Below, piece by piece: positions 18,258 through 46,703 of a DNA stretch of 64,000 bases. Numbering within the stretch: the first letter of the stretch is position 1; each line of letters opens with the position of its first letter. The position numbers and the translations under genes were made by a program. Source of the DNA: Candidatus Aenigmatarchaeota archaeon (GTDB lineage: Archaea; Thermoplasmatota; Thermoplasmata; Halarchaeoplasmatales; Halarchaeoplasmataceae); NCBI GenBank assembly GCA_046537845.1, contig JBKHKA010000007.1, forward strand, positions 1,249-65,248, written 5' to 3'. A model generated the notes under the pieces. The model saw nothing but the letters and a program-made list of their open reading frames with translations, was not told where the DNA came from and made no database searches.

Positions 18258-18274
18258 TGTCGGGGACGGGGTTT
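18258..18274. repeat. 17-nt exact duplicate of the tRNA 3' end (candidate att remnant)
   Basis: tgtcggggacggggttt occurs at 18258-18274 and again at 18405-18421, inside the tRNA acceptor/T arm. Confidence 0.7.
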
Positions 18275-18404
18275 TAGTCGGAAATCAAAAAAGATTTCCA
18301 ACAACTCACAAATCGCAGGAAACAAGGGTTTCTGAAGATGAGGGGGACGAAGTCCTATGAAATCAGAGATTTGTTCGTGAACCCGCTTTAAAAGATAGAT
18401 AGAG

Positions 18405-18513: not shown

Positions 18514-18534
18514 AAAAAGTTTCTTCGTTTTGTT

Positions 18535-19452: not shown

Positions 19453-19512
19453 TTGAATGTTTGAGATTTATAGATGTTATAACTACTTTTTGGTTTATTA
19501 TTCTTGCCATCA

Positions 19513-21042: not shown

Positions 21043-21149
21043 CCGAGAGACATCTACAGGGAAGTATAAATATTTTGGACTTGGACATTTAATTTCATTG
21101 GAAAACATTTAATACGATGAGTTCCCTTCTATCTTCTAGGTAGAAATAT

Positions 21150-27364: not shown

Positions 27365-27517
27365 GATGTTTACCTTTTTGTTAAAGGAGAAAGTTCTTTA
27401 CTTTTAAGTTTTCGCACCTCCATCAATGGTTTTGAGTCATTTTGACCCCGACTTTGTGAGAAAGATTTATATTCAAAATCCTTTTTTATATGAGTGCGAG
27501 TTAGAGAGCAGAAATGT

Positions 27518-28006: not shown

Positions 28007-28527
28007 GACTTTTGGTCAGATCAAATAAGGGTCAATCGAGTCTTTTAGACGCATTGATATTTTTCAGCATCGCATTGATCGCTTCCGCGATCTTGATCTT
28101 CGCACCATTCCCTGGAAGCTCTCCGGAAACGAAGGAAGTGATGAGACTTTACGGTGAGAGTACTCTCGATTCTTACCTTCACTCGACTCTCAACCACACC
28201 TCCTACGAATACCAAAATGAAACGATCCATCTCGACGATAGAACGGTATCTGAATTGGTGGTGGAGAACCTATATCTGAGAGATAACACAGATGTGAATA
28301 ATGGCAGTTTGAGAGAGGGTATAGAGAGAGATCTCAATGAAACATTAGATGCTCTGGTCATATCACAATATGATTACAATTTTACCGCCTGGTCTTCTGA
28401 AAACGCTTCTTTCGGGTACGGCCAACAGACCAAAGGTGTGGATGAGATGAACTCCTTTTCACAAGATTTACACACACCGGATCAAAACGCGACCTATACT
28501 GCGAACCTCAAGATCTGGCTGGCGTGA
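28003..28527 (+). CDS. Small pilin-like protein (174 aa) with a class III signal-peptide-like N-terminus
   Basis: MRLLVRSNKG|QSSLLDALIFFSIALIASAILIFA has a basic leader, a G-Q junction and a hydrophobic helix. Its ATG overlaps the upstream stop as ATGA. Confidence 0.7.
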   Translation: MRLLVRSNKGQSSLLDALIFFSIALIASAILIFAPFPGSSPETKEVMRLYGESTLDSYLHSTLNHTSYEYQNETIHLDDRTVSELVVENLYLRDNTDVNNGSLREGIERDLNETLDALVISQYDYNFTAWSSENASFGYGQQTKGVDEMNSFSQDLHTPDQNATYTANLKIWLA

Positions 28528-28617
28528 GGATCGAACGTGAACCAAGATTCACCACCTAAAAGCGGAATACATAAATAATCATCCCAACAATTATGATATA
28601 ATAAAAGAGGTATAGTT

Positions 28618-32914: not shown

Positions 32915-35900
32915 TTACTCTTCTTCATCCAGGTCGGCACCGCAGGCCCAACACTTATCCGCCCCGGGTTCTAGTTTATTATTGCAGACAGGACATTTTA
33001 TTTTCTCTTTCTCTTCAACTTCACCCTCAGTTTTTTCTTCAGACCCCGGCTGCTCTTCTTGGTCAAGTCCTGACCCTTTGTGGCTCCATATGCCTCCCGA
33101 GGAAACCTTATCAGACTCGGATTCTTCTTCCAGCATCTTCGTCACTTCATCCTCTAATTCCTCTTCACCTTCGCTCTCTTCATCATCCAATGCTGGGCCA
33201 ACGGGTTCAGATCCCACTTCTGATCCCGTGAAAGAGCTATCTGGTTTCTCCGTGGTGACGCCTTCTTCACTGAAAGATCTTACTTCCGCATAATCTCTTC
33301 CGCATCCTAGACACTCTCCTTCGACCATGAGACAATCGTTGTGGTAAGCATTTCCACACTGGCATTCTAAGCTGCTCTCGGGATCTATCGGGCTGTTGCA
33401 GATATCACAGTCTTTTGATGGCTTAGGCCGTGATTTGGAGGAATATATACCCATACCAGCAGCACCAGCCCTAGCCGCTCCGCTCTCACCCATATAGTTC
33501 CCGTCTTGAGGCCTAGGCGGTGAAGACCTTGATGAAGATGCCCTAGACGTAGAGACTCTAGTCGGTCTAGTCGATCTCTTTTTCTTTAGTGATTTCAATT
33601 TTTCGCCTTTTTTCTGCCTGATCTTGGAAAATTTCGATTCTTTAACCGGAAGCAGTTTTTCTTGTTCCTCCCGTCGCCTTTTCCAGTAAACGAATAACCC
33701 TATCAATATAACTGCGATAGGTATCGGGAGGAGATACCACCAATTTATCCCAACGGGGCCAACTTTGGTTTCTGACTGGTATTCGTTACCGGCGGCATCT
33801 TCTACAACGATCTGGTAATCCACATCACTGAATCCCACATCATCCCCTGATATAGTCGCCTTATACTCCCCACCGGCTCTTTTCATCTCCTTTTCTTTCC
33901 AACCGTCATCCTCTTCATATCTGAGGATAACTCTCTCTACGGAGCTCGCTCCACTGTCTATAGAAGCTGTCACGGTCATCTCGTTTTTCCAAACCGTATC
34001 CGAGGTGTCAAAGTCTTTCAAAGAGGGTGTGGTCAGATCTATCTTCAGCCACTCTGTTTTTCCTTCTTCGTTCAGGTTTCCCGCATTATCAAGTGCTCTT
34101 ACACCAAGATAGAACTGGCCTTCTCTATCGATCATAAAACTCCCTTGATATTCCTCCCAATCTCTATCTTCGCCCAATCTATACTGCAGTATCCTTACTC
34201 CTGATCCCCCTTCATCGTCAGCATATATCTTCACCTCGGGAGGAGCGTTATACCACCCGTTGCTATCGGGCTCGGAGATTTCGTATTTGATCTCAGGCTC
34301 CTGTGTATCTACTTTAATCTGAGATGTGTCGGCATTTTCTTCATCTGAGCTTTTCAGACCTGCATTGTTCTCGGCTAGATATTCTACGGTGTGTTCGCCG
34401 TTCTCAAGTTTTATCTCCACCACGTCAGATTCGGCTTTTTGCCATTCACCTGTTTCATCATCACTGATTATCCTGTACTTTATCGAAGACACTCCCGAGT
34501 TACCGTCCTCCGCGCTTATGTTGACCGCTGGCTCCTCTATATGCCAATCGTTTTCCCCCCCTGGGTTTGGAGAATTGAGTTCTACAGATGGAGCTGTTTT
34601 ATCAATCCTTATCACCTGGAGTTTTTCTTCTTCCACATTCCCTGCGGTGTCTACAGCCCTGTAATACAGACTGTTCTCCCCCTCTTCTCCTATGGTTATG
34701 CTTCCACCGTCACCCTCTATTTCCTCCCATCCCTCGCCTACTCGATATTCTATATGATCTACTCCTGAATAGCCGTCTTCAGAACTAAAGCTCACCTCTA
34801 CATCCCCTATGTACCAGCCATCTTCTCCCTCGGGGCCGTCCAAAGCCACATGAGTAGTGGGTTCGATAACATCTATCTTGAAGCTTTCATCATTTATATC
34901 TTCTTGATTTCCTCCATTATCTATGGAATAGAACTGAACCTCGTGGGTTCCGGAACCTGAAACAGTGGTACCGCCGCTGGCACCATCGATCTCCTGCCAC
35001 TCCCCATCGTCTATCTTGTACAATATACTGTCGACTCCTGAATGGGCGTCCTCCGCACTGAACTGTAGCTCGACATCGCTCCTGTACCAACCGTTCTGAG
35101 GACCCTCGCCTTGTAATGTAAGGGAAGTATCCGGCGGATCTTTATCTATGGTAAAGGAGTATTGATTGGATTTCTCTTCGTTCCCAGCCACGTCTACCGC
35201 ATATATGTAATACTCCACCTCGCTGCCTGCGTCCTGATCAGGGATATCACCGCTGTACTCGTCACCAGTTGTAGAATTCATTGGGCTGGCCTGCCAAACA
35301 CCTCCGTCGACCCTATACCTCACCTCGAGTGAATTCTCGTCGACCCCGCTGTGCTGGTCGGTTATCCTCGCCGTGATCGTATATGGGCCATAACCTTCCC
35401 ACCCTTCGACAGGATCGTGTTCTATCTCGGGAGAATATGTATCCTCCATGTATTCCACATTGACCTCGCTCAAAGAGGGCGTGATCTGCCCGTTCGATGT
35501 TTCAAAGGTGGCTCTGTACTGTATGTATCTGTCCACTGGACTCGGCACCTCACCACCGTTCGAGGCCTCTGCCCAATCTGACCAGCTGTTACCGTCGGGA
35601 GATGTCCTGGTCTCCATAGTGAGTGAAGTACCTGAAGGTTCATCCGCATCCCAGTGGATGGTACCCCAATCATACATCCCATCTCCGGTATCATAAACGC
35701 TTGATACTAAGGTTCCAGAATCCTCGTGGGTTTCGACTATCGCCTCCATGGTCGTTATCACATCGTCATCCGCCCAATCCATAGTTTGCGGACTCGTTGT
35801 GATCTCCCCATTATAATAGTATTGACCATTTTCTCCAGTGAAACCTACGGTGCTCAGATCTCCCAGTGTATATTGACCCAACTTGTCACCTCCCTGTACA

Positions 35901-36451
35901 GGGATGGGGAGTTGATCACTACTAGTATCCCAAGTCTTGATGGTCCAAGATTCTGGATCAAAGGTTTCAGTTTCAGCTGAAAAATATTCATCTTGGTTAC
36001 CTGTTGGGCGTAATATCTTGAGCTTGAAAGCAGAATGGCGGTCGGCACAGGTAACCGTGAATTCGATTATCTCACCACCTCGGTCGATATTGAAATCATC
36101 TCGACCTGGAAAAGTAGTATATCCAGGATCCCAATAATAATCGTCGTTAGGCGACTCCGCCGCTCCCACCTGAAACTCATACGTATCCAGCATCACTTCG
36201 CCTGAAGAAGTTGTGGTATCCAAATTTGTTAAGTCACCGGATTCAAAATCGGACTGTGTAGTCTGGGTCCATGTTTCCGTGGATAAGGGTTTCCGAGGTT
36301 TCTCAGCTGTTGGGGATACATTGATAGTTGAATTCTCCTGAGGAGTCGAAGCCGAGGAGGGCATGGACATAAAAACGACTAACCCTACAGAAGTCAATAA
36401 GATACCTATGGTTAGGATTATCAAGGATTTTTCGAACGATTTATTTTTCAT
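32915..36451 (-). CDS. Single-pass receptor/adhesin-like protein (1178 aa): signal peptide, N-terminal globular domain, six Ig-like repeats, TM helix, cytoplasmic C4HC3 zinc finger, acidic linker, terminal zinc ribbon
   Basis: Signal MKNKSFEKSLIILTIGILLTSVGLVVF. Repeats follow the consensus D-x-x-x-P...GWY...D-x-x-SGV...Y-R...W...AGN. TM helix WWYLLPIPIAVILIGLFVYW followed by KRRREEQE. Finger CDIC-x11-CQC-x4-H-x2-C-x6-CLGC. C-terminus CPVCNNKLEPGADKCWACGADLDEEE. Confidence 0.85.
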   Translation of the reverse strand: MKNKSFEKSLIILTIGILLTSVGLVVFMSMPSSASTPQENSTINVSPTAEKPRKPLSTETWTQTTQSDFESGDLTNLDTTTSSGEVMLDTYEFQVGAAESPNDDYYWDPGYTTFPGRDDFNIDRGGEIIEFTVTCADRHSAFKLKILRPTGNQDEYFSAETETFDPESWTIKTWDTSSDQLPIPVQGGDKLGQYTLGDLSTVGFTGENGQYYYNGEITTSPQTMDWADDDVITTMEAIVETHEDSGTLVSSVYDTGDGMYDWGTIHWDADEPSGTSLTMETRTSPDGNSWSDWAEASNGGEVPSPVDRYIQYRATFETSNGQITPSLSEVNVEYMEDTYSPEIEHDPVEGWEGYGPYTITARITDQHSGVDENSLEVRYRVDGGVWQASPMNSTTGDEYSGDIPDQDAGSEVEYYIYAVDVAGNEEKSNQYSFTIDKDPPDTSLTLQGEGPQNGWYRSDVELQFSAEDAHSGVDSILYKIDDGEWQEIDGASGGTTVSGSGTHEVQFYSIDNGGNQEDINDESFKIDVIEPTTHVALDGPEGEDGWYIGDVEVSFSSEDGYSGVDHIEYRVGEGWEEIEGDGGSITIGEEGENSLYYRAVDTAGNVEEEKLQVIRIDKTAPSVELNSPNPGGENDWHIEEPAVNISAEDGNSGVSSIKYRIISDDETGEWQKAESDVVEIKLENGEHTVEYLAENNAGLKSSDEENADTSQIKVDTQEPEIKYEISEPDSNGWYNAPPEVKIYADDEGGSGVRILQYRLGEDRDWEEYQGSFMIDREGQFYLGVRALDNAGNLNEEGKTEWLKIDLTTPSLKDFDTSDTVWKNEMTVTASIDSGASSVERVILRYEEDDGWKEKEMKRAGGEYKATISGDDVGFSDVDYQIVVEDAAGNEYQSETKVGPVGINWWYLLPIPIAVILIGLFVYWKRRREEQEKLLPVKESKFSKIRQKKGEKLKSLKKKRSTRPTRVSTSRASSSRSSPPRPQDGNYMGESGAARAGAAGMGIYSSKSRPKPSKDCDICNSPIDPESSLECQCGNAYHNDCLMVEGECLGCGRDYAEVRSFSEEGVTTEKPDSSFTGSEVGSEPVGPALDDEESEGEEELEDEVTKMLEEESESDKVSSGGIWSHKGSGLDQEEQPGSEEKTEGEVEEKEKIKCPVCNNKLEPGADKCWACGADLDEEE
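33310..33347. repeat. 38-nt block identical to 38234-38271 (zinc-finger coding region of the two paralogs)
   Basis: gacactctccttcgaccatgagacaatcgttgtggtaa is present at both positions, verified base by base. Confidence 0.95.
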
Positions 36452-36567: not shown

Positions 36568-37080
36568 TCAATCTTCAAAGATGAAAGTATGATATTGGGT
36601 CTCACCGCTGACTATCAATTCGCACCTCATCACTCTGAAACCCTCTCCTGAGACAAGATCAAGATAACGGTGCTCGTCATCGATCTCCGCAAGCTCCGTT
36701 TCGTTGGTGGTATAATTGATCTGTGATGGATCCCAAAGATGTACCCTTTCACTATCTTCAGCGGTGATATCGGATGATGCGAGTTTACCTTGCGCTTCAA
36801 GACTCACCTCACTAGAACTTATCCTGATCTCATATTCTTCCCCATCTATCTCCGATGGTAGTTCCACAGCGGAAGCGTTCTCCCTGAAGGTGAAATAAAG
36901 TGTAGAATTAGAATGGGTGTTAGAAAGTTCATTCACTCTAGAAGAAATCTCTTGAGAGAGGCTCTTTAACCTAGTTTCATCTATATCCTCTCTTGCAGCT
37001 GAAAAAACGAAGATTGAAAATATCACCAAAGCCATGGTGAAGATAGAGACGATGATTTTTGAAAGTGCCCAATCCAACAT
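36568..37080 (-). CDS. Small N-terminally anchored protein (170 aa); paralog of 6072-6605
   Basis: MLDWALSKIIVSIFTMALVIFSIFVF helix. Shared blocks with the 177-aa protein are listed under that feature. Start codon lies 1 nt after the upstream stop. Confidence 0.7.
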   Translation of the reverse strand: MLDWALSKIIVSIFTMALVIFSIFVFSAAREDIDETRLKSLSQEISSRVNELSNTHSNSTLYFTFRENASAVELPSEIDGEEYEIRISSSEVSLEAQGKLASSDITAEDSERVHLWDPSQINYTTNETELAEIDDEHRYLDLVSGEGFRVMRCELIVSGETQYHTFIFED

Positions 37081-37081
37081 C

Positions 37082-37618
37082 TTACCACTCTAATACATCC
37101 AGCTCGACATAGTAATCGTTTTCGACGCCGTCTTCATTCATATCGAAATCCGCGGGCTTTTTAACTATAGATATCCGCTGATTCCCTCCTGGGATTATCA
37201 GGGTATCGTTATCCGGCGAGCACATAGGGATGCCCTTACGACCGTGGGTGACTAATATCGATTTTTCAGGTTCCTCTCTGAGTTGATAATAGATGGCTCT
37301 TGTGTGAACAGAACCGGACAAAGGAGCACCCACCTTTACCTCTTCAGTCTCGGGAGGAAATTCTATTTCTAAAACCGTGCTCGCATTCACACCTTGGATA
37401 TACACGCTCTCCACGGCAGATGCTATCTGATTTACTTCTTGGGAGAGCTGTTCTTCTGCACTGTTAGTGCGGTAGTGAGACAGGGCGGAGAGCATAGACG
37501 GTATAGCTATAGCGAGTACGATAGCTATTATCAAAAGCCGGAAAGGATAATCCATAACTCCTTCTTCGGAGCGTTTCAAGTTCCTTGGATCGCATCTTTT
37601 CTTTTCTATTCCATCCAT
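37082..37618 (-). CDS. Small pilin-like protein (178 aa)
   Basis: Charged leader MDGIEKKRCDPRNLKRSEEG followed by VMDYPFRLLIIAIVLAIAIPSMLSAL and a beta-rich body. Confidence 0.65.
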   Translation of the reverse strand: MDGIEKKRCDPRNLKRSEEGVMDYPFRLLIIAIVLAIAIPSMLSALSHYRTNSAEEQLSQEVNQIASAVESVYIQGVNASTVLEIEFPPETEEVKVGAPLSGSVHTRAIYYQLREEPEKSILVTHGRKGIPMCSPDNDTLIIPGGNQRISIVKKPADFDMNEDGVENDYYVELDVLEW

Positions 37619-37637
37619 CTGATCTCAACCTCGTCTT

Positions 37638-40600
37638 TTATTCCTCTTCATCCAGGTCAGCACCGCAGGCCCAACACTTGTCTGCCCCTGGTTCTAGGTC
37701 GTTATTACATATCGGGCATTTTGTAGGACCTTTATCTTTATCTTCTTCTTCAGTGGATTCCTCCTCGATCGACTCCTTTTCCTCTTCTGACCTTTCATCT
37801 AAGTTTTCTTCGGGTTCTAGGTCTTCTTTGCCCCCTTCCTCTTCCTGCTCTTCATCTATCTCTTCATCCTTATCCTGTTCCATCTTTTCTTCTTGCTCAC
37901 TGACTTCACTCGGTTCTTCTTCCATGTCCTCAGCTTGCTCATCCTGCTCGACCCCCTCCTCCAACTCTTCTTCATCCTCAATCGTCTCGCTCTCTTCGGA
38001 CTCCATTTCATCTGAGGGTTCCTCTTCTTCTTTAGCTATCTCCTTCATCTCCTCTGCTTCTTTTTTGACTTTTTCTTCGGGCTCAGTACTGGTTTCGTCT
38101 GCTAATATCTTTATATCCGCTCCATCCTCGGTTGTCTCTTCGGTCTCCCCCCTCTCTTCCTCCTCAGTGCCTTCATCAGAACCTCCTTCTTCCGTGAAGG
38201 ATTTAACGGCCGCATAATCTCTTTCACATTCAGGACACTCTCCTTCGACCATGAGACAATCGTTGTGGTAAACGTTCCCGCATTCACATTTCAATCTACT
38301 CTCAGGATCGGTCGGGCTGTTACAGATGTCACAGTCTTCTGAAGACGTCTGTGAAAGAGCCGATACAGGCATCGTTTCCCCTCTAGCCCCTGGTGGAGGG
38401 GTGGAGGATCTACCACCGTTCCCTACGTCTGCCGTTCTTTCGGCTCGTTGACTCTTCAATTCTTTCAATTTCCTCCCTCTTTTCTCCCTGATTTTTGAAA
38501 ATTTAGATTCTTTTATAGGCATCAGTTTTTCGTGTTTTTCTCTGCGCTTTTTCCAGAACACAAAGAGAGCTAAAAGCACCACCGCGATGGGTATCGGTAC
38601 AAAGTACCACCAGTTTATGCCGACATCTGCTACCTTTGTCTCCGTTTCCTCGACATTTCCAGCTCCATCTCTCACCACTATACGATAGTCAACATCGCTG
38701 AAGCCCACTTCGCCGCCGGAGATGGTGGCGACATATTCCCCATTTTCTAAGTTCATCTCTTTTTCTTTCCAACCGTCTCCTGAGTCATATTCTAAGATGA
38801 CTCGATCGATGTCGGAGTTATAATCCTTCGCCTCCACAGAGACGGTGAGATCGTTTCTCCAAACCGTAGGACTCGATTCAGCAGATTCTATCCTGGGTCC
38901 TTCAAGATCCATAAGATATTCAAAATCCTCAATATATTCATTCCCCGCCTCGTCTTTTACGTATAATTCTACCTCTAGTTCACCCGACATGCTCACATCA
39001 AAAGTGGTGTTCATTTTACCGATATCACCTGAATTCTCACGTGTCTCATTCTCCCATTCTCCCCTCCTATTTATCCGACAACTCACTTCACTAACGCCGG
39101 ATAATTCGTCCTCGGAGTCCACAGAAATCGTACCTGGAGAATTTACCCATCCTTGCTCATAAGGTGGATCGGTTTCATAATATAGATCGGGAGAAGAGGT
39201 GTCCACTTTGATCTCTTTTTCATTCACCTCGCTTTCCCTACCAGCCTTATCTACACTGTGATATTCTACTGTATAAATACCGTCTTCAAGAGTTATCGTT
39301 TCCTGGTATTCTGACCATTCTTCCTCCCCATCTATCCTGTAATTGATGTGTGATACTCCAGATATATTATCCTGAGCATTCAATTCAACTTCGGGGGCGG
39401 TGACATACCATCCTTTGTTGCCTTCCTCGCCAAGGACCTCGGCAGATGCTTGAGGATCTTCCAGATCGATCTTGATCTGAGTCGTTCCTCTTTCTTCATT
39501 GCCGGCCCTATCGAAACACCGATACTCTAACTGAAACTCACCAGATTCATCCAGATCGATCTCGCTTTCATATGTACGCCATTCTTCTTCACCAAACCTG
39601 TACTCGATGGTTTCGATATCTGAGTTTTCGTCGGTGGCAGATATCTCTACCTGAACATCTTCAAGATACCATCCGTTCTCACCTGAAGGCTCAGGCTTTA
39701 TCACTTCCACCTCTGGTGGAGACATATCGATCTTCACCTCTACCGAGTCGACTCCCTCCTCGTTCCCGACCTGATCATCAGAATAGTATTCCACCTCGTA
39801 TATGCCAGATTGCTGCAGCTCGATGGGCTGAGCGTACTCTTCCCACCCATCATCGAGTCTGTACCACGTGGTACCCACCCCGGAGTCCCCATCACTTGCA
39901 TCCAATTGAACCTCTACTTGACTCGCAAACCACCCGTCGTCCCCCTCCTCGCCGGATAGCACGGGCTCCGTCTCCGGAGATTCCTTATCCACCTTGAAAG
40001 GATAATATTGATCCTCATCAGGAGATGTTGCCACTAACCCGGCTTCATTTTCCGCCTCGATATAGTACCTGACTTCAGTAGAGTGGTTAAGATCTGGTAT
40101 CTCGGTTTCATATAACTCATCACCTACCTGCCCCATGGTCAGTTCATTCCAGCTGCTGCCCTCATCGATGCTGTAGTAGGTGCTTGGGTTTTCGGCCAAT
40201 CCGCTCCCTCCGTCCTGGACACTCGCGGTGATGGTATAACCTCCCTCGGCCTGCCATTCATCCAAAGAGCTGTGCTCTATATCCGGAGGGTCTTCATCCA
40301 CTCGGTACTCTATACGGATGCTGTTCAAAGAAGGCGTTTCTCTGCCAGTTGCAGACGTGAAGGTCGCTCTGTACTGAATATATTGGTGAGTATCATCACC
40401 CGGGACGTTCCCCTCATTCTCAGCTTCCTCCCAGGATGTCCAATCCTGCCCGTTTGCGGAAGTCCTCGTTTCTATAGTCAGGTTCGATCCTTGAGGCACG
40501 TCGGCATCCCAACTTATGCTCTCCCACTCGTACATGTGCTGTCCCGCATCGTGCACGTTTGATTCATGAACGCCCTCGTCACGATGGGTTTCTACTTCAG

Positions 40601-41384
40601 CCTCCAAAGTGGTTATCGCGTCATCGTCGCTGATATGTCCCATCTCCGTAGGAGTACTAGTTACCTCCCCATCATGACTCCAATAACCATTGTTTCCAGT
40701 CAAAGCAACTGCAGCGATGTCGCCAAGTGCGTAAAGACTCAATCGATCTTCTTTTTCTATAGGTATATCCAGCCCGGTCCGTTCATTTATCTGCCCAGGG
40801 TTCAAGTTTGAAAAGATCTCTGATTGAGCCGCATAAAACTCGGCGCTCTCACCAGGGTTAACAGCATCTGGATCGGTGGGCCTGAGAACTTTCAGCTCTA
40901 TGTCTCCAGCTAGATCTGGGTCATCCCCCACATTTATCCTGAACTCTCTGATCTTGCCTCCTCTATCTGCTCTAAAATCATCCCTACAGCCGAGGAAAGT
41001 TGATCCCTTGGGCCAATAATAATATCCCCCTCTGCTCCCCTGTTCAGCCGCTTCAGCCGCCCCTATCTGGATCGTGTCAGTATCCAACTTTACCTTACCC
41101 GGCTCCGAATCGAGGTCTAGATCTTCGCTGTCCCCCTGTTTGAAGTCGCTCTGCGACCACTGCTCCCAAGAAGCTACGCTTTTGACTCCCTCCTCCTCTC
41201 TTGAGGGGAGATCTTCTTCCCTTGAAAAGAATGTTTTCGCTTCGGAGATACCTCCGTTAGCTAAAAAGGGCCCCCAAAACGAGAGCATCAAAAACACGAC
41301 TATGGCCGTGACAAAAATCAATGTGAATACGAAAGATAGTTCGGAAACAAAGCCGTTTTTCATTTTATCATCCATGGAAGCCAC
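37638..41384 (-). CDS. Single-pass receptor/adhesin-like protein (1248 aa), paralog of 32915-36451, with a longer acidic cytoplasmic linker
   Basis: N-terminal anchor LSFVFTLIFVTAIVVFLMLSFW, six Ig-like repeats, TM helix WWYFVPIPIAVVLLALFVFW (about 38553-38615) then KKRREKHE. Finger CDIC-x11-CEC-x4-H-x2-C-x6-CPEC (38226-38333). An ~160-aa E/D-rich tract. Terminal CPICNNDLEPGADKCWACGADLDEEE. Confidence 0.85.
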   Translation of the reverse strand: MASMDDKMKNGFVSELSFVFTLIFVTAIVVFLMLSFWGPFLANGGISEAKTFFSREEDLPSREEEGVKSVASWEQWSQSDFKQGDSEDLDLDSEPGKVKLDTDTIQIGAAEAAEQGSRGGYYYWPKGSTFLGCRDDFRADRGGKIREFRINVGDDPDLAGDIELKVLRPTDPDAVNPGESAEFYAAQSEIFSNLNPGQINERTGLDIPIEKEDRLSLYALGDIAAVALTGNNGYWSHDGEVTSTPTEMGHISDDDAITTLEAEVETHRDEGVHESNVHDAGQHMYEWESISWDADVPQGSNLTIETRTSANGQDWTSWEEAENEGNVPGDDTHQYIQYRATFTSATGRETPSLNSIRIEYRVDEDPPDIEHSSLDEWQAEGGYTITASVQDGGSGLAENPSTYYSIDEGSSWNELTMGQVGDELYETEIPDLNHSTEVRYYIEAENEAGLVATSPDEDQYYPFKVDKESPETEPVLSGEEGDDGWFASQVEVQLDASDGDSGVGTTWYRLDDGWEEYAQPIELQQSGIYEVEYYSDDQVGNEEGVDSVEVKIDMSPPEVEVIKPEPSGENGWYLEDVQVEISATDENSDIETIEYRFGEEEWRTYESEIDLDESGEFQLEYRCFDRAGNEERGTTQIKIDLEDPQASAEVLGEEGNKGWYVTAPEVELNAQDNISGVSHINYRIDGEEEWSEYQETITLEDGIYTVEYHSVDKAGRESEVNEKEIKVDTSSPDLYYETDPPYEQGWVNSPGTISVDSEDELSGVSEVSCRINRRGEWENETRENSGDIGKMNTTFDVSMSGELEVELYVKDEAGNEYIEDFEYLMDLEGPRIESAESSPTVWRNDLTVSVEAKDYNSDIDRVILEYDSGDGWKEKEMNLENGEYVATISGGEVGFSDVDYRIVVRDGAGNVEETETKVADVGINWWYFVPIPIAVVLLALFVFWKKRREKHEKLMPIKESKFSKIREKRGRKLKELKSQRAERTADVGNGGRSSTPPPGARGETMPVSALSQTSSEDCDICNSPTDPESRLKCECGNVYHNDCLMVEGECPECERDYAAVKSFTEEGGSDEGTEEEERGETEETTEDGADIKILADETSTEPEEKVKKEAEEMKEIAKEEEEPSDEMESEESETIEDEEELEEGVEQDEQAEDMEEEPSEVSEQEEKMEQDKDEEIDEEQEEEGGKEDLEPEENLDERSEEEKESIEEESTEEEDKDKGPTKCPICNNDLEPGADKCWACGADLDEEE
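38234..38271. repeat. 38-nt block identical to 33310-33347
   Basis: Same 38-mer as in the paralog. The 3'-terminal ~85 nt of the two genes (32915-33000 vs 37638-37723) are also about four-fifths identical by eye. Confidence 0.95.
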
Positions 41385-41554: not shown

Positions 41555-42109
41555 TTAAGGTCTTTCGACCCATATGCTCGTTTGGACTGATTCGGTTCCG
41601 ATCAGACCTTCGTAGGAGGCCTCGATCTCTATCTTGGCGTGGTCCTCGTTTTGGCGCAGTCTGCAACCGTCTAAATCTAATTCCGCCTGACCTGTAGAGT
41701 TCGTCGTAGCAACTGCGCTAGCTCCGGCACCTTCTGCCTCTACGTCAACACCGGCCATCACATTACCGTCTTCATCATATATCGTTACAACCAAATATTC
41801 GTCGTATTCCTTCTCCGGTGGCAAGGTGTTGTCCGAATCATCCGGGTCGGGCCGTTCAGATCCCTTGTAATATGCTCTTCCATCTTCGTATAATTCCTCA
41901 CAGATCACACTTTCATGGGTTTCGTTAGTACCGTGTTGAACCTCGTGCACTCTGACGTCGTCTATCTTCGGCTCCGTTGTCACCATGAATCCCAGTATCG
42001 CCGCTAGGGAGACCGCCGCTATTATCACTATCAGCAGTATGTAGAGAGGTATGCCCATGATCTGGGCGTATTCGTCATCCTCTATTCTTCGGGGGGGTAG
42101 CGAGTCCAT
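41555..42109 (-). CDS. Small pilin-like protein (184 aa) with a beta-sandwich-like C-terminal domain
   Basis: Leader MDSLPPRRIEDDEYAQIMG, helix IPLYILLIVIIAAVSLAAILGFMV, and a C-terminal VVTIYDEDGNVMAGVDVEAEG...TTNSTGQAELDL resembling a CarboxypepD_reg-like fold. Confidence 0.65.
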   Translation of the reverse strand: MDSLPPRRIEDDEYAQIMGIPLYILLIVIIAAVSLAAILGFMVTTEPKIDDVRVHEVQHGTNETHESVICEELYEDGRAYYKGSERPDPDDSDNTLPPEKEYDEYLVVTIYDEDGNVMAGVDVEAEGAGASAVATTNSTGQAELDLDGCRLRQNEDHAKIEIEASYEGLIGTESVQTSIWVERP

Positions 42110-42171
42110 TTTTTCTTACCTCATTATTATCCAATACGGTCAAACAATATATATTTTGCTGTGTATCTCTC

Positions 42172-44196
42172 CTACACCATCCCGCCCAATAAGGACTCAG
42201 TAAATAACAGCGAAATAGTGTAAAGCAGCATAGAGACAGGGAGGATCCTCACCACGTTCATCTTCCGACTGGCCCAATCCTCCCCGCTCTCGATACCGAC
42301 CGTGAAATAAACCGTCAGGAGAACGAGGGTTATGAGGTAGATCCCCACGACCATGGAAAATGTGAAACCCGCTATGGGTACCTCTTCACCTATTATACGA
42401 CCGGCCATCCCGGCCAACGGCCCCTCCAATTCGATCTGAGCGAAATAATTCGAAAGTATTACGTAAAGGACCGCGGTCACCCCCATGACAAGGGGAGCGA
42501 TGAATTGGGCGGTGACTTTCATCATCCCTGTTATCTCCGTCAACCTGCTCTTCATCTCCTCTTCGATGTTCTGAAGTTCGGTCAGGTATCCAGATATCCT
42601 CACCAAAGTATCTCCTGCGGTCTCCGGATCTTTTTTTATCGCCCTAGATATCATGGTAGTTGTAGCTTTGATCATCTGTGAGGGATTCTTTTCCAGAACT
42701 CCTCCTCTACCGAATAACACATCTGAAAGCGATTTCCTCGTGACATGTAGTGAATAAGAGATCTTCTCGAAAAGGACACTGATACTGGAGGAATGTATAC
42801 TCTCAGAAACTTTTTCGAAGGCCCTTTCCGGCGGGTCTCCTCTACTTATATATCCTCCAAGATGAAAGAGGGCGTTCGGAAAGTTGTTCTCCATCTCCAA
42901 TATGTTATCTCTCTGCTTATAAGGGAAGTACGATGTGAAGAAGCAGTATATGGTTATGGCCGCCGCGATGCCCCACAAGGGGAGCAGTGATATCAGATAA
43001 GAGTGATCGGGTCTCAAGTAAAATCCCAAGAAGACCAGAGTGCCCCCTACTCCCAGCGAAGCCCCTATAACGGCATATTTTTCGCGGTCCGTTAGAAGAT
43101 CGGAAAGTGAGAGAGGTGCTCTCATGGTCGGGCGGTATCCCAATATGTGGATCGAATATATCAAAAATCCGAGAGGTATCACCACGTTTAGAACGAAAAT
43201 TATGAGTTCAGCAGCAGTTTCTCCGATCGCCAATACAGGTAAAAGAGCGGCCAACAACAGCGGCAGGATACTCCCCAAAGAAAAGAGGCTCATCGCTGGG
43301 ACGGTCAAAGATTCCGCAAAATTCCTCATCTTATTCTCGGTACCTTTCACGGCTATATCGTTGGCTTTTTCCAAGCTCGCAGTGACTTCCTCCTGCGTCT
43401 CTTTATGGGCTGCGTTCCGCAGCGTGTATAAACTCCTTCTGAACTCTTCACTCCACTTCCCCCATTCATCGGCGAAGGCTATCAGGGAGTCTTCGATCTT
43501 TGTGTGTTTCCTCATCTCTACGTCCCATATTATCCTTCTTAATTCAGAGGACAGAGGTTCTTCGACGCTGTCGGCGGCATACTCTATCGCCCTTGACAGA
43601 TTGGGAGTCAAGGACATAGCCATTACCATGTAATTGATGGCCTCAGGCATGCGCCCTATCGATTTGGCTCTTCTCCTCTTAGCCATATAGTTCGGTATAT
43701 TCATGACCAAAGCGATAGCAAGGATGGGCAAGATTATGACAGGCATCAGGGTGGTCAATTTGAACAGGAAGGGTATGTCCGTGAAAAAGAGGGTGTAAAG
43801 AGAAGCTACCAAGGATATCAAGAAAACTATCATACCCACGAAGTAAGCAAGATATCTGACTTCGAAGGGTTCTGCGTCTATCTGGGCGAACTTTATCGAG
43901 CTCTTGAACTCATCCTTTTCAAGCTTTTCTTTTTCTATCTCGTGGTCTCTTAATGCGAGTTCATAACGCTGTTTCGCCCTTTTAAATATTGGACTACCAG
44001 GAGGATGTTTCTTTCGGATCTCTTTGAACTTCTCCTTTTCCTCCTCAAACTTCCGATCGAGTTCTTTGTCTTTCTCTTTGCGCCTCTCCTGTCTTTCCTG
44101 CCTCTTCTCAGATAGGTCCAATTGAAAAAGGGCGCTCGCAAATTTGCAACCTTTCGTGAAATAACCTTGGCTTTGTGTTTGATCCATCGAAGGCAT
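42172..44196 (-). CDS. Type IV pilus/archaellum-type polytopic platform protein (FlaJ/TadC, T2SS-F family) (674 aa)
   Basis: An N-terminal K/E-rich cytoplasmic segment followed by about 8-9 TM helices arranged as two repeats with cytoplasmic helical bundles. Lies immediately downstream (1 nt) of the ATPase gene. Confidence 0.75.
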   Translation of the reverse strand: MPSMDQTQSQGYFTKGCKFASALFQLDLSEKRQERQERRKEKDKELDRKFEEEKEKFKEIRKKHPPGSPIFKRAKQRYELALRDHEIEKEKLEKDEFKSSIKFAQIDAEPFEVRYLAYFVGMIVFLISLVASLYTLFFTDIPFLFKLTTLMPVIILPILAIALVMNIPNYMAKRRRAKSIGRMPEAINYMVMAMSLTPNLSRAIEYAADSVEEPLSSELRRIIWDVEMRKHTKIEDSLIAFADEWGKWSEEFRRSLYTLRNAAHKETQEEVTASLEKANDIAVKGTENKMRNFAESLTVPAMSLFSLGSILPLLLAALLPVLAIGETAAELIIFVLNVVIPLGFLIYSIHILGYRPTMRAPLSLSDLLTDREKYAVIGASLGVGGTLVFLGFYLRPDHSYLISLLPLWGIAAAITIYCFFTSYFPYKQRDNILEMENNFPNALFHLGGYISRGDPPERAFEKVSESIHSSSISVLFEKISYSLHVTRKSLSDVLFGRGGVLEKNPSQMIKATTTMISRAIKKDPETAGDTLVRISGYLTELQNIEEEMKSRLTEITGMMKVTAQFIAPLVMGVTAVLYVILSNYFAQIELEGPLAGMAGRIIGEEVPIAGFTFSMVVGIYLITLVLLTVYFTVGIESGEDWASRKMNVVRILPVSMLLYTISLLFTESLLGGMV

Positions 44197-44197
44197 T

Positions 44198-46018
44198 TCA
44201 GAAACTCTCCTGGAACCATCTTTCCCAATCTTCTACAAGCTTATCGTAATCCACTGAACCATACTCTTCCAATTGCCATTCCAACATGTGCCAAAATTTG
44301 GTGTTGTATTCAGGCACATAGTCGGCTTCCAACAGTTCCAATCTGCCCTCTTCCCGGGCCCTCTCCACCACAGCGGATTTCACAAGTGCCCTAGCACGGA
44401 TGTTTTCTTCCGCCTCTTCCATCGACATATCCCAATCGTCCGCTATTTTGGTCAGCAGCTCTGAAGACTCTCCAAAGTAGTCTGTCTTTTCCAATGTGTC
44501 ATTTTCGGGAGAGTACAGCATCAGATCGTTGAACAGATCATCACCTCTATCCAAACCTATATCTGCATCTACAGTGGAGGGTACGGCATCTTTTCTCACC
44601 TCGGATATCTGGGTCGTTTTTCTCACCAGCCGGTGTAATCCTTTAGGCCGTCTGTAGTTCACCATTATCACCCCGTCGGTAGCTGCGAAAGATTTCGGGG
44701 GTATATTCAAGTCGTAAACAACTCTTTCGTAAACCGCCTTCGGAGAATCCGCATGGATGGTGCCCATGACGGCACTGCCCGCTGTACCTGCTCTCATAGC
44801 TTCGTACAAAGTCCTAGCTTCTTCACCTCTGACCTCACCCATGACTATGGCCGATTCACCTAACCTCAATGACACGCGCAGCGATTCTTCGGCCGACATC
44901 TCGCCGAGGCCGCCGATTCCGCTGGATTGGACATGCATGGACTGGACTTTGTAACCTTCCTCCTTGAGGGACGAACAAGGCAATTCTAACGTATCCTCTA
45001 TGGTAACGATCCGTTGACTCGGAGGGAATTCAAACATCAAGGCCGCCGCAAGTGACGTCTTACCGGCACTCCTTGGACCCGCGACCAATAAAGTCGCATT
45101 GCCGTCGATCAAGAAGGACAGGAGACCGGCAGATAGGGGTGAAATACTTCCCTGATATATCAATCTCAAAAGTGTCCATGGATTCGGAGAGTGCCTCCTG
45201 AAAGTTATCGAGACCCCTTCAGGCGAGAGAGGTTCGCCTATCACCGTAGCCCTGGTTTTGTACTCCGGAAGACTGCATTCGAGAACCGGTCTAGCCTCGG
45301 AGAACGCTCTGCCGCTCTCATACTGCAGCCTCGATATGATCGAGTCAGCACTGTCTTTTGTCAGAGTTATGTTAGTTACACATTTAGATGGTAGAGATTT
45401 ATCCAGGCCGGTAGAAGAGATTATAGTATATATCTGGCTTTCTTCTACAGGTGCATCTATGTAAACGTCCGTGGTCCTGGTATCTCTCAATAATATCTCG
45501 ACTATCCCAAGACCGACGGTGTATCTTGAAAGGATATTCGATAACATCCTGACCCTCGCCAATTCCTCTGAACGGGTGCGTCCCAGATTGACTCCTTCGA
45601 TGTTCGCGTACTTGTATATCAATCTGTGGCCTTGTTTCTTTGCGTATTCCCTGATGAAAGTGGGCCGATGACCTTTTTCTTTCCCTGGATAATGGTCCAG
45701 TATCTCCTCTCGTGCGAGGGTTATTATTTTTTTCTGGCCGGGCGGCAGAGTGTACTCAAGGGGTTCCACGTGGTAGAGTGTTTCAGTTTCTCCCGGCAGC
45801 CTGTAGAGGGTGATCCGGGTTTCTTCTACCAAATATTCTTTTACCTTCTGGGCACCCGGGGGAGGATTGAGAACAATCCAGGAAGAAGAGAATTTGGGTT
45901 TGACCCGCTGGTACGACTCGAATATGCTGCTGAATTTTCTCTTTAGATCGTGATCGACTTTGCTTTTCACCAGCGATCCTCTATCTGATATCGGGCCGGT
46001 TTCTGCTTCCATTTTCAT
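44198..46018 (-). CDS. Type II/IV secretion-family ATPase (FlaI/PilB/VirB11-like) (606 aa)
   Basis: Walker A LVAGPRSAGKTS, Asp box IVTIEDTLEL, Walker B AIVMGEVRGEEA and His box GTIHADS, plus a long N-terminal domain. Confidence 0.88.
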   Translation of the reverse strand: MKMEAETGPISDRGSLVKSKVDHDLKRKFSSIFESYQRVKPKFSSSWIVLNPPPGAQKVKEYLVEETRITLYRLPGETETLYHVEPLEYTLPPGQKKIITLAREEILDHYPGKEKGHRPTFIREYAKKQGHRLIYKYANIEGVNLGRTRSEELARVRMLSNILSRYTVGLGIVEILLRDTRTTDVYIDAPVEESQIYTIISSTGLDKSLPSKCVTNITLTKDSADSIISRLQYESGRAFSEARPVLECSLPEYKTRATVIGEPLSPEGVSITFRRHSPNPWTLLRLIYQGSISPLSAGLLSFLIDGNATLLVAGPRSAGKTSLAAALMFEFPPSQRIVTIEDTLELPCSSLKEEGYKVQSMHVQSSGIGGLGEMSAEESLRVSLRLGESAIVMGEVRGEEARTLYEAMRAGTAGSAVMGTIHADSPKAVYERVVYDLNIPPKSFAATDGVIMVNYRRPKGLHRLVRKTTQISEVRKDAVPSTVDADIGLDRGDDLFNDLMLYSPENDTLEKTDYFGESSELLTKIADDWDMSMEEAEENIRARALVKSAVVERAREEGRLELLEADYVPEYNTKFWHMLEWQLEEYGSVDYDKLVEDWERWFQESF

Positions 46019-46070
46019 TCATCTCCAATATTCCTCAATATCTAATCGAGCCTTACTTTCCGTTATAAAA

Positions 46071-46703
46071 TCATTCTGTGGAGGATCCAACTCCTATCTC
46101 TCTCATGGTCATCTTATACAGCTTTTCGTACTCCTTTTTCAGATAATCCAAGTCCTCTAGAGTGGAGTAAGTACATTCCTCACATTCTGAATGAGTGTTG
46201 GAAGACCTGTCTATCTCCCGGACCACTCTGTTGAATTCAGCTTCATATTTTCCTATTCCCTGGGTGAATTTAGTGTATAATCTGGAGAACACGTTGGAAG
46301 GATTGAATCTGCATCCGTGACATTTGAGTTTTTTCTTATCTTTGTTATCTAGATAATCAAAGTATTTTTCCACAGGATCTCTCATCGTGAAATCTTCGAT
46401 GCTGTCCATAAAATCCACTAGGTTGTTCAGTACTTCCATGGATGGACCGAAGTACTCCGTATCCTCGTAGTGAGATAACACAACTGTATCGAGTCCCATC
46501 TCTTCTGACATTATCGTGAGGACAGAAGTGAGGCATTCCTGATCGTTCAGGGATGGTGCCTTGTCACAGTCTGTACATTCGAGCACTAATCGTTTTTTCG
46601 AGCCGCTTTGATCTATATGATAATCACATCTGAAGGCTTCTTCTTCTTCATCATCCCCTCCCAACCCGATCAATTCTTTCATACCTTTTGTTTTCTCGGC
46701 CAT
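46071..46703 (-). CDS. Cys-rich hypothetical protein (210 aa), first gene of the pilus-like operon
   Basis: Good ORF with acidic composition. Cys pairs CTDC, CHGC and CEEC plus single Cys residues suggest metal binding. No family recognised. Confidence 0.6.
   Translation of the reverse strand: MAEKTKGMKELIGLGGDDEEEEAFRCDYHIDQSGSKKRLVLECTDCDKAPSLNDQECLTSVLTIMSEEMGLDTVVLSHYEDTEYFGPSMEVLNNLVDFMDSIEDFTMRDPVEKYFDYLDNKDKKKLKCHGCRFNPSNVFSRLYTKFTQGIGKYEAEFNRVVREIDRSSNTHSECEECTYSTLEDLDYLKKEYEKLYKMTMREIGVGSSTE

Follow-up and report, generated by a model that had tools for sequence, protein, structure and literature searches.

A pair of large surface protein genes and their surroundings

The window, by which we mean the whole 64,000-nucleotide stretch of DNA that was analysed, carries two large related genes, A and B, whose host, Ca. 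Natronoplasma, is a halo(alkali)philic member of the Thermoplasmatota. Gene A is a real gene: its 1248-aa open reading frame corresponds with 100% identity to NCBI protein P0001 of a Ca. Natronoplasma MAG, and since the NCBI call has 1245 aa, translation probably begins with the ATG at 41375. The features of both genes and of their neighbours are as follows (residue numbers refer to protein A).

27494..32889, plus: convergent companion operon with pilin-like proteins of 170 and 176 aa and a 1423-aa DUF7286 protein (Pfam)
32915..36451, minus: gene B, 1178-aa paralog that shares its architecture and its type IV pilus-like operon with gene A (BLASTP)
32942..32995, minus: predicted zinc ribbon of gene B
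33302..33409, minus: finger of gene B
33683..33742, minus: transmembrane helix of gene B
36568..37618, minus: pair of small pilin-like proteins situated between A and B, one DUF7311-like with 178 aa and one DUF7266-like with 170 aa (sub-threshold Pfam)
37638..41384, minus: gene A, surface protein with a predicted cytoplasmic RING-like tail (ORF, NCBI identity to P0001)
37665..37718, minus: predicted C-terminal zinc ribbon CPICNNDLEPGADKCWAC, C-x2-C-x10-C-x2-C, residues 1223-1240 (motif)
37731..38186, minus: acidic disordered linker (composition ~50% D/E)
38187..38348, minus: RING-type C4HC3 finger with conserved C-terminal extension (G/E)(R/K)DYAxVxSF (motif, profile, AF2, Foldseek)
38439..38552, minus: conserved juxtamembrane helix of basic character on the cytoplasmic side, KKRREKHEKLMPIKESKFSKIREKR..KLKEL (alignment A1, invariant columns)
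38553..38612, minus: C-terminal transmembrane helix WWYFVPIPIAVVLLALFVFW (Kyte-Doolittle peak at residues 921-946; helix in AF2)
38625..38897, minus: Ig-like domain nearest to the membrane, residues 830-920 (identity to the paralog 53%; repeat features in sequence)
38898..39986, minus: OmpL47-type Ig-like repeats, four in tandem, residues 467-829 (NCBIfam NF047446, Pfam Big_13)
39987..40298, minus: first flanking Ig-like domain, DUF7743-like, residues 363-466 (Pfam DUF7743)
40299..41189, minus: N-terminal globular ectodomain, residues ~66-362 (45% identical to paralog B)
41265..41345, minus: N-terminal hydrophobic helix, residues ~14-40 (Kyte-Doolittle peak at residues 10-45)
41555..46703, minus: upstream part of the operon (Pfam; synteny kept in genomes L001 and L008), which includes a cytoplasmic protein of 210 aa with Cys residues and a pilin-like protein of 184 aa
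42172..44196, minus: T2SSF/TadC-like membrane protein (Pfam T2SSF, 24.2 bits, cut-off 25.2)
44198..46018, minus: T2SSE-family ATPase (Pfam T2SSE, 58.7 bits)

The pilus-operon setting given in the initial annotation was thus borne out, as the neighbours of gene A include the T2SSE ATPase, the T2SSF-like protein and small proteins whose signal peptides are class-III-like. For the pilin-like pair encoded between genes A and B, the N-termini (..SEEG/VMDYPFRLLII.. and MLDWALSKII..) are kept in three genomes. The pilin-like proteins of the convergent operon carry ..KGQ/SSLLDALIFF.., and the arrangement of this operon matches in L008 and L009.

Two segments of protein A are hydrophobic by the Kyte-Doolittle scale (residues ~10-45 and ~921-946). 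The N-terminal one may represent a signal peptide or a signal anchor, and in the orthologs compared it is followed by the conserved motif PF(L/I)ANGGI(S/A)E; as no Gly is conserved at position -1, the N-terminus contains no obvious class III (prepilin) site. Of the single-pass topology originally assigned to the protein, the C-terminal transmembrane helix stood, while a single pass would require the N-terminal helix to be cleaved off as a signal peptide. The globular ectodomain gave no Pfam match and no PDB sequence match; the C-terminal beta-module of this region (residues ~289-353) is common to gene A and to protein P0017, described below. Six Ig-like domains follow, as counted before, but only four of these are of the OmpL47 type, with GW motifs at residues 484, 571, 658 and 745 (repeat period ~87 aa) and matches to NF047446 (four stretches, 183.8 bits, cut-off 40) and Big_13 (40 bits). 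The other two are flanking relatives, and the first of them matches DUF7743 below threshold (E 0.006), whereas its orthologs exceed the threshold or come close to it. Gene A resembles the Leptospira OmpL47-type repeat proteins (NF047446/NF047441) in its four tandem domains of this type, which score well above the domain cut-off. However, gene A is not OmpL47 itself (118.8 bits against an equivalog cut-off of 250) and, unlike the Leptospira proteins, it is archaeal and possesses a C-terminal transmembrane anchor and a zinc-finger tail.

The tail and its C4HC3 finger

In the AF2 model of the whole tail, a single unbroken helix (model residues 12-69) spans the transmembrane segment and the juxtamembrane region. 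The cytoplasmic location proposed for the tail is consistent with the KKRREKHEK stretch past the membrane helix, and with the order of parts in ~27 relatives, whose fingers without exception come after the last transmembrane helix. The ligand pattern C-x2-C-x11-C-x-C-x4-H-x2-C-x6-C-x2-C was recovered exactly as annotated at residues 1018-1053 (nt 38226-38333), and a six-frame scan of the 64-kb window found it twice only, in genes A and B. Its eight ligands are invariant across 70 aligned finger instances from 40+ proteins. Both results set the pattern apart from a chance occurrence.

Several lines of evidence point to a RING-type cross-brace rather than to two independent ribbons, in agreement with the original reading of the motif. 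The best phmmer match of the finger in the PDB was the RING-H2 domain of gp78 (E 0.004). The profile of all 70 instances matched whole domains of RNF24 (E 6e-7), Arkadia, RNF165, RNF126, EL5 and ZNRF3, while PHD (Pygopus) matches covered part of the domain only. The AF2 finger model (pLDDT 85.6) contains the beta-hairpin and central helix of the RING core, and Foldseek searches with this model returned RING domains as 36 of the 37 best matches, with probabilities of 0.92-1.00 (at least 0.97 for most). Based on homology and on this zinc-free model, the finger of gene A is best described as a predicted RING-type cross-brace.

Among the known finger families close to it is Prok-RING_1 (PF14446), reportedly the prokaryotic RING finger family 1 of Burroughs, Iyer and Aravind (2011), which shares the C4HC3 order and the core C-x2-C ... 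C-x-C-G-x2-(Y/F)-H-x2-C ... C-P-x-C. Relatives of the finger pass the Prok-RING_1 and zf-RING_2 models; for Prok-RING_1, these include P0021 (50.9 bits, the highest score), P0023 and P0024, all found with the tail profile. Genes A and B themselves score 10.2 and 16.8 bits, respectively, less than the gathering score of 29.1; the E-value for gene B is 0.0067. Compared with Prok-RING_1, the finger of the Natronoplasma clade is mostly acidic, has a Glu-Gly signature ahead of ligand 7, and is part of a fixed module that runs from the transmembrane and basic helices through the finger to the disordered linker and the zinc ribbon. PHD (PF00628) and RING-CH/RINGv fingers likewise have the C4HC3 order and an aromatic residue before His. 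Unlike in these, ligands 3 and 4 of the gene A finger are separated by one residue instead of two, and the loop between ligands 6 and 7 has six residues instead of at least 12; moreover, Pfam PHD did not match gene A, PHD matches in the PDB covered only the first half of the finger domain, and one PHD domain occurred among the best 50 Foldseek matches.

The linker, originally described as almost purely E/D, proved to consist of 50-56% D/E. It contains a conserved short motif (nt 38040-38114, IKILADETSTEPEEKVKKEAEEMKE) of the form IKILADxTSTExEEKVKK, which is kept in P0002, P0003, P0004 and P0018, while the linkers of P0019 and P0020 are instead Pro/Gln-rich. The terminal C-x2-C-x10-C-x2-C was confirmed by motif scan. 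The ribbons of orthologs match Zn_Ribbon_1, Zn_ribbon_3 and DUF7577, and that of gene B matches Zn_Ribbon_1. The gene A tail is predicted to bind zinc.

Proteins A and B are 42% identical over 1045 aa (BLASTP). Identity reaches 72% in the transmembrane and juxtamembrane helix, 74% in the finger and 83% in the zinc ribbon, compared to 36-45% in the ectodomain, which indicates that the tail is under stronger constraint than the ectodomain. Since many synonymous differences remain, recent gene conversion alone does not explain their similarity.

Occurrence of the tail in other surface proteins

Protein P0017 carries the same succession of transmembrane helix, finger and ribbon on an unrelated ectodomain with InlB-B repeats, and its gene is surrounded by metabolic genes, with no pilus locus. 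The link to pilus genes, part of the initial interpretation, is therefore not a property of the tail, and the wider finger-tailed proteins examined lie outside pilus loci as well. The tail of genes A and B is a self-contained, portable module. Past the last transmembrane helix, the finger recurs in one to four copies in many giant Thermoplasmatota surface proteins: a transmembrane helix precedes the finger(s) in ~27 of 39 finger-bearing matches and follows them in none. The ectodomains of these relatives are diverse (PKD/NosD, FG-GAP, GH57, DUF2341 with LamG), and all named relatives belong to Thermoplasmatota. Soluble multi-finger proteins and one fusion of FHA with the finger were also detected, a pattern typical of interaction modules.

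Possible role of the tail

As a whole, these observations are best explained if the finger tail is a cytoplasmic docking module on membrane-anchored surface proteins, an explanation to which we assign about an even chance. Outside the cell, the globular head, the four OmpL47-type repeats and the two flanking Ig-like domains would form an adhesin- or envelope-like array. Inside, one transmembrane helix would lead through the basic helix to a zinc-stabilised RING-fold finger, followed by a linker of variable composition acting as a flexible tether, and by the terminal ribbon. Finger and tethered ribbon would most likely constitute a protein-protein docking site, by which surface proteins could be tethered, clustered or sorted via a cytoplasmic partner or via each other. 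According to this model, the tail would be neither a canonical E2-dependent ubiquitin-type ligase nor a pilus-specific coupling device.

Coupling to the pilus machine is nevertheless suggested by synteny, as gene A accompanies small pilin-like genes in 4/4 genomes examined and in three of them (the window, L001 and L008) also follows the ATPase and TadC-like genes, with the conserved 210-aa protein at the head of the operon. The tail might then have its partner in the operon's secretion ATPase, in the TadC-like platform or in the 210-aa protein, so that engagement of the ectodomain would regulate pilus assembly, or the protein might act at the pilus base as a stator or collar. In the census of archaeal type IV pilus loci by Makarova, Koonin and Albers (2016, PMC4858521), Zn-ribbon accessories recur and large proteins with a C-terminal transmembrane helix are proposed to be S-layer-like or adhesin components. 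Gene A is similar to the latter in being large, secreted, anchored at the C-terminus and located beside ATPase, TadC-like and pilin-like genes; as far as it was searched, the census describes no RING-type finger on such proteins, and the gene A tail type is not restricted to pilus loci. Because P0017 bears an identical tail far from pilus genes, gene A lacks an adjacent ATPase/TadC pair in L009 and L004, the wider finger-tailed family shows no pilus linkage and the tail has no enzymatic output domain, we consider such coupling unlikely. The synteny in four genomes leaves room for a pilus-related role of the gene A ectodomain, and it is reasonable to hypothesize, as the initial annotation did, that the tail may take part in outside-in signalling or recruit a cytoplasmic partner. 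A membrane-anchored RING E3 ligase, which would recruit an E2- or E1-like enzyme charged with a ubiquitin-like, SAMP or Urm1-like protein and modify nearby proteins as an archaeal counterpart of the transmembrane RING-H2 ligases RNF13, RNF24, ZNRF3 and gp78, is also rather improbable. The best sequence and fold matches of the finger are indeed active RING-H2 E3 domains (zf-RING_2; RNF24, Arkadia/RNF165, gp78/AMFR), with full-domain profile matches at E 6e-7 to 1e-3 and Foldseek TM-scores of 0.5-0.6 (rmsd 2-3 A). Several derive from membrane-anchored ligases (RNF24, gp78/AMFR, ZNRF3, RNF13, synoviolin, plant RMR1), and two E2-contact positions, the Ile/Val of C-x-I-C that comes behind the first Cys and the Pro of C-P-x-C, are conserved, so that some E3-like activity is still conceivable. 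PA-TM-RING and other transmembrane RING-H2 ligases (RNF13, GRAIL/RNF128, ZNRF3/RNF43, plant RMR1), of which RNF13, ZNRF3 and RMR1 were among the profile matches, even share the overall plan of signal peptide, ectodomain, transmembrane helix and RING. However, their PA domain is unrelated to the Ig/OmpL47 array of gene A, and we have no evidence for common descent of the whole architecture or for ligase activity.

In contrast to RING-H2 domains, ligand 4 of the gene A finger is Cys, the C-x-C pair is shifted relative to C-x-H, the central helix is four residues shorter, the Natronoplasma clade invariably has Glu where Arkadia-type RINGs have their E2-binding Trp, and Gly or Glu takes the place of Arg at the linchpin position past the last Cys. 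As many as 4-5 fingers stand in tandem in one protein, which is unusual for E3s, and no ubiquitin system was seen near gene A, as E1, E2, Ubl and JAB genes were absent from the six gene-annotated neighbourhoods examined and from the window genes scanned (L008 and L009, represented by ORF lists alone, stand outside this set). E2 enzymes are not known in archaea outside Aigarchaeota and Asgard. The tail is thus probably not a canonical E3. Very unlikely, in our opinion, is a lipid-binding finger comparable to FYVE, C1 and some PHD domains, which would bind inner-leaflet head groups and, for very large ectodomains, make the anchor stiffer or orient it: weak C1_1 matches in multi-finger relatives, profile matches to Raf-1/PKC C1 domains and the slightly basic character of the wider-family finger (mean net charge +1) speak for it, but in the Natronoplasma clade most fingers are strongly acidic (of ten instances, eight have net charges of -6 to -9 and two have +1), the finger lies ~70-90 residues from the membrane past a disordered linker, and soluble multi-finger proteins exist. 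We find it hardly credible that the tail is a generic Cys-rich one with two sequential mononuclear sites of the zinc ribbon or LIM-like kind; an earlier AF2 run on the whole tail gave a pLDDT of only ~40 in the finger region, and the six-residue loop between ligands 6 and 7 fits this as well, but the full-length RING-H2 matches, the confident second model with the RING order of secondary structures and the almost uniformly RING Foldseek matches contradict it.

The initial annotation knew of no described archaeal system of this architecture, yet the NCBI name of the ortholog P0002 is "PHD finger domain-containing protein", the finger class is already present in Pfam as Prok-RING_1, and the C4HC3 ligand order is reported to be typical of prokaryotic RINGs (PMC11354881).

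Architecture and uneven conservation of the paired surface proteins

Gene A, the surface-protein ORF at 37638-41384 on the minus strand, encodes 1248 aa. Protein A is 100% identical to a 1245-aa NCBI entry (P0001 here) of a Candidatus Natronoplasma MAG, and the true start of gene A, judged from this match, is probably the ATG at 41375. In NCBI, the product name of P0001 is only 'OmpL47-type beta-barrel domain-containing protein'. Natronoplasma is assigned to 'Ca. Halarchaeoplasmatales', a halophilic order of Thermoplasmatota represented solely by MAGs (PMC11332174).

The order of parts proposed in the initial annotation (N-terminal anchor, globular region, Ig-like repeats, transmembrane (TM) helix, cytoplasmic C4HC3 finger, acidic linker, terminal zinc ribbon) was correct overall, but some of its details had to be amended. 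Instead of six repeats, we found four OmpL47-type repeats of ~87 aa each between two related Ig-like domains, and the linker, described as almost purely acidic, has an Asp+Glu content of 50-56%. With the NCBIfam model of the OmpL47-type domain (NF047446, domain cut-off 40 bits), A scored 183.8 bits in 4 stretches, which identifies the domain, and its paralog B scored 189.2 bits in 5 stretches. No PDB sequence match and no Pfam match was obtained for the N-terminal globular domain of A.

Membrane segments and zinc motifs of protein A
Residues 10-45: first of only two hydrophobic segments
Residues 921-946: second hydrophobic segment, with KKRREKHEK directly C-terminal to it
Residues 1018-1053 (38226-38333, minus strand): C4HC3 finger, C-x2-C-x11-C-x-C-x4-H-x2-C-x6-C-x2-C
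Residues 1223-1240: terminal C-x2-C-x10-C-x2-C

No tandem repeats are present in the DNA of the acidic linker of A, indicating that it is not a recent microsatellite-like expansion. Inside this otherwise fast-evolving linker, a short conserved motif, IKILADETSTEPEEKVKKEAEEMKE, is located at 38040-38114 (minus strand). Its form IKILADxTSTExEEKVKK is common to four A-type orthologs (P0002, P0003, P0004 and P0018) and absent from B-type paralogs; it may represent a linear binding motif. Open reading frames antisense to gene A on the plus strand (37585-38217, 38845-39162 and others) are an unsupported Ser/Leu-rich mirror of the acidic coding strand.

Gene B (32915-36451, minus strand) encodes 1178 aa with the same architecture and is 42% identical to A overall. 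Identity between the two proteins is distributed unevenly.

Identity between proteins A and B by region
Ectodomain parts: 36-45%
Membrane-proximal Ig-like domain: 53%
TM and juxtamembrane helix: 72%
Finger: 74%
Terminal zinc ribbon: 83%

Identity is highest in the TM and juxtamembrane helix, the finger and the terminal ribbon, and these conserved regions still carry many synonymous differences; the tail (TM helix, basic helix, finger, linker and terminal ribbon) is thus the most constrained portion of A and B.

Fold and class of the cytoplasmic finger

When the whole window was translated in six frames, only two occurrences of the C4HC3 pattern were detected, one in A and one in B. Its eight ligands are invariant in 70 of 70 aligned finger instances. 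At the sequence level, the finger is a real one and not a chance pattern. The spacing of the eight ligands is that of the RING superfamily, although classical RINGs have a shorter spacer between ligands 4 and 5 than the x4 of A, which resembles PHD/RINGv. Agreement with the PHD finger (PF00628) extends to the order of ligands but not to their spacing (x1 and x6 versus x2 and at least 12), and no Pfam PHD match was obtained in A or B.

Profile and structural comparisons pointed to RING-H2 domains, the closest in fold. The top PDB match of the single finger was the RING-H2 domain of gp78/AMFR (E 0.004). A profile of all 70 instances matched RING-H2 E3 domains over their full length (RNF24 at 6e-7, Arkadia, RNF165, RNF126, EL5, ZNRF1/3, RLIM, synoviolin and gp78), while PHD fingers (Pygopus, KMT2D) were matched over the first half only. 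Compared with RING-H2 domains, the finger family is devoid of four residues of the central helix. When the finger alone was modelled by AF2 with the 70-sequence alignment, mean pLDDT reached 85.6, and the model contained a two-stranded sheet (model residues 19-21 and 27-29) followed by a helix (30-36); an earlier run, in which the entire 151-aa tail was modelled from 5 sequences, had given a pLDDT of ~40 for the finger. In a Foldseek search of the PDB with this finger model, RING domains (among them RNF125, TRIM21, RNF165, TRIM25, gp78, RNF12 and TRAF6) accounted for 36 of the top 37 matches, with probabilities of 0.92-1.00 (mostly at least 0.97), TM-scores of 0.5-0.6 and rmsd of 2-3 A over ~45 residues. 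The sole PHD domain ranked 37th. Taken together, the profile, AF2 and Foldseek matches support the cross-brace fold claimed initially, predicted here as a beta-hairpin and central helix with putatively interleaved ligand pairs, against two independent ribbons, for which they gave no support. Binding of two zinc ions by the finger, the pairing of its ligands and the topology of A are likewise predicted.

As for family assignment, the gathering threshold of Pfam Prok-RING_1 (PF14446, 29.1 bits) was missed by both A (10.2 bits) and B (16.8 bits); B also gave a weak Zn_Ribbon_1 match. Relatives found with the tail profile scored 34-51 bits, above this threshold, and also passed the gathering score of zf-RING_2. 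Membership of A and B in Prok-RING_1 would thus be supported transitively only, through these relatives. The finger of A, then, has the RING-superfamily pattern and predicted fold, and falls below the Pfam thresholds for Prok-RING_1 and PHD; in function, Prok-RING_1-type fingers are its closest counterparts. One A ortholog is named 'PHD finger domain-containing protein' in NCBI, and the C4HC3 order is reported to characterise prokaryotic RING domains (PMC11354881); we therefore place the finger, as a divergent member, in a known class. A heliorhodopsin preprint considered as related literature deals with other zinc motifs and is irrelevant here.

RING-fold fingers are a hallmark of eukaryotic ubiquitin ligases. 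Prokaryotic ones were reportedly catalogued by Burroughs et al. in 2011 and, to our knowledge, are almost entirely uncharacterised. The overall plan of A recalls the eukaryotic PA-TM-RING family of transmembrane RING-H2 ligases; its ectodomain, however, is unrelated to theirs, and nothing indicates ligase activity of A. A canonical E3 role of the tail would agree with the E2-contact positions in fingers of the Natronoplasma clade, where the Ile of C-x-I-C is conserved in 9 of 10 and the Pro of C-P-x-C in 6 of 10. However, the position equivalent to the E2-binding Trp of Arkadia-type RINGs (by alignment to Arkadia and RNF24) is Glu in 10 of 10, the linchpin position after the last Cys is Gly or Glu, and neither the scanned genes of the window nor six gene-annotated loci outside it yielded any E1, E2 or Ubl gene. 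Given the conserved Ile and Pro, and a gene search covering the window and six loci, we retain this less likely reading as an improbable one. Its more general form, in which RING-H2-like fingers of giant Thermoplasmatota surface receptors or adhesins would catalyse or direct conjugation of Ubl proteins (SAMP- or ubiquitin-like) upon extracellular events, appears to us similarly unlikely; if true, it would provide a prokaryotic precedent for eukaryotic RING E3s of the receptor type, such as ZNRF3, RNF43, GRAIL and RMR.

Genomic context and distribution of the tail

Genes A and B are members of one minus-strand operon, facing a convergent one.

Gene order in the pilus-like locus
Gene 1 (46071-46703, minus strand): Cys-containing cytoplasmic protein, 210 aa
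Gene 2 (minus strand): T2SSE-family ATPase
Gene 3 (minus strand): T2SSF/TadC-like protein
Gene 4 (minus strand): pilin-like protein, 184 aa
Gene 5 (minus strand): gene A
Genes 6 and 7 (minus strand): DUF7311-like, then DUF7266-like protein
Gene 8 (minus strand): gene B
Convergent operon: two pilin-like proteins and a DUF7286 protein of 1423 aa

The ATPase exceeded the Pfam T2SSE cut-off (58.7 bits), and the T2SSF score of its neighbour was borderline (24.2 versus a cut-off of 25.2 bits). A secretion ATPase of the T2SSE/VirB11 family and a TadC/FlaJ-like polytopic protein thus share one operon, and this adjoining pair is kept in two loci elsewhere (L001 and L008). In these two loci, one from GCA_019594385.1 and one from a soda-lake Thermoplasmata MAG, the gene order of the operon recurs; partial versions of the locus without an adjacent ATPase were found in two further genomes. 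By eye, the N-termini of the small proteins are class-III-like (..SEEG|VMDYPFRLLII.., ..KGQ|SSLLDALIFF.. and ..DDRGK|IPFALVGVV..). No prepilin peptidase was detected among the window genes scanned. The operon content and recurring gene order indicate a type IV pilus-like locus, which bears out the pilus context initially assigned to gene A. Protein A itself was rejected as a type IV pilin: the Gly/Ala -1 cleavage site is unconserved among orthologs, and a C-terminal TM segment with a cytoplasmic tail is present. The 210-aa protein heading the operon contains several conserved Cys (..FRCDYH..LECTDC..QEC..). It has no family match and is kept in the same position in L001 and L008; we regard it as a candidate partner, either for the ATPase or for the tails.

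When 1.84 billion representative proteins were scanned exhaustively by HMMER with a TM-to-finger profile, the full tail was detected in only six 50%-identity clusters. Those with a name all derive from MAGs of Natronoplasma or Thermoplasmatota, sampled in hypersaline or soda environments. Across this family, the terminal zinc ribbon is kept and the composition of the post-finger linker varies, being acidic in A and Pro/Gln-rich in P0019 and P0020. One relative, P0017, bears the A/B tail on an unrelated ectodomain of five InlB-B-type repeats and CARDB, and its gene is flanked by metabolic genes, not pilus genes. On this comparison, the tail is a portable module whose function would be independent of the pilus locus. 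Pilus-specific coupling through the tail, as suggested in the initial annotation, is weakened by P0017 and also by the loci that have no adjacent ATPase; for A and B it may still hold, with low probability.

Proteins sharing only the finger numbered ~38 in the same scan. In about 27 of 39 motif-bearing proteins, the finger(s) are preceded by a hydrophobic segment, and in 0 of 39 are they followed by one. The named ones among these 39 belong to Thermoplasmata or Thermoplasmatota. Many of the 39 are giants of 1000-4900 aa with 1-4 fingers in the tail and ectodomains that include PKD/NosD, FG-GAP, GH57-like, DUF2341 with LamG, and He_PIG. The remainder includes soluble proteins with arrays of 3-5 fingers and an FHA-finger fusion. 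No pilus, E1, E2 or JAB genes were found in three of their neighbourhoods. The tail of A and B is one clade within a broader practice among Thermoplasmatota, in which 1-4 fingers follow the membrane anchor of giant surface proteins. On a JGI metagenome contig (L013, 1321-13073), two finger-tailed giants adjoin, of 2197 aa (DUF2341, LamG, PKD) and 1690 aa (FG-GAP, LamG), both with Prok-RING_1-type fingers. In another locus (L012), a finger-tailed DUF2341 giant is followed ~4 kb downstream by a 1060-aa protein (18119-21301) that matches CarboxypepD_reg-like and double zinc-ribbon (DZR) domains, a hint that surface proteins with zinc-ribbon tails are likewise more widespread in Thermoplasmatota.

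Several other genes of the window deserve mention. Cyanophycin metabolism is unusual in archaea; here, a cyanophycin synthetase-like gene (23804-26500, plus strand; Cyanophycin_syn N-domain, ATP-grasp, Mur ligase M/C domains) adjoins a Peptidase_S51 (cyanophycinase-like) gene (26540-27364, minus strand). A seryl-tRNA synthetase-like gene (19513-21108, minus strand) bears the tRNA_bind_4 N-domain typical of methanogen-type SerRS, and ribosomal protein S3Ae (18535-19452, minus strand) carries a fused helix-hairpin-helix (HHH_5) domain at its C terminus. A 109-nt tRNA detected by Rfam (18405-18513, minus strand; 53.5 bits) and unreported by ARAGORN is probably an intron-containing archaeal tRNA. 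The 1845-aa ORF at 667-6204 (minus strand) gave no Pfam match at E<=1e-4 and contains no C4HC3 finger pattern.

Proposed role of the tail and its significance

Proteins A and B combine the logic of ectodomain-TM-tail topology, a predicted RING fold, a selectively conserved portable tail and lineage-wide recurrence. The tail is a real module of archaeal surface proteins, rare as well as tightly conserved, and is an interesting architecture rather than a new system. Most economically, the finger would offer a docking surface, stabilised by Zn, on the cytoplasmic side of the membrane, assisted by the terminal ribbon on its flexible tether; together, they might tether, cluster or sort TM-anchored surface proteins. 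The ectodomains of A and B would give an adhesin- or envelope-like function to the pilus-type locus, in agreement with earlier proposals for large C-terminal-TM proteins of archaeal type IV pilus loci (PMC4858521).

The module of TM helix, basic helix, RING finger, linker and zinc ribbon joins large archaeal surface proteins to the cytoplasm. Its partner, once found, would reveal how surface proteins are organised, tethered or turned over in these archaea, a question made more pressing by the fact that many Thermoplasmatota have no rigid wall. The partner would also tell whether the eukaryotic 'ectodomain-TM-RING' E3 plan has a functional counterpart in archaea. The tail makes both prokaryotic RING fingers and the cytoplasmic anchoring of surface proteins experimentally approachable.
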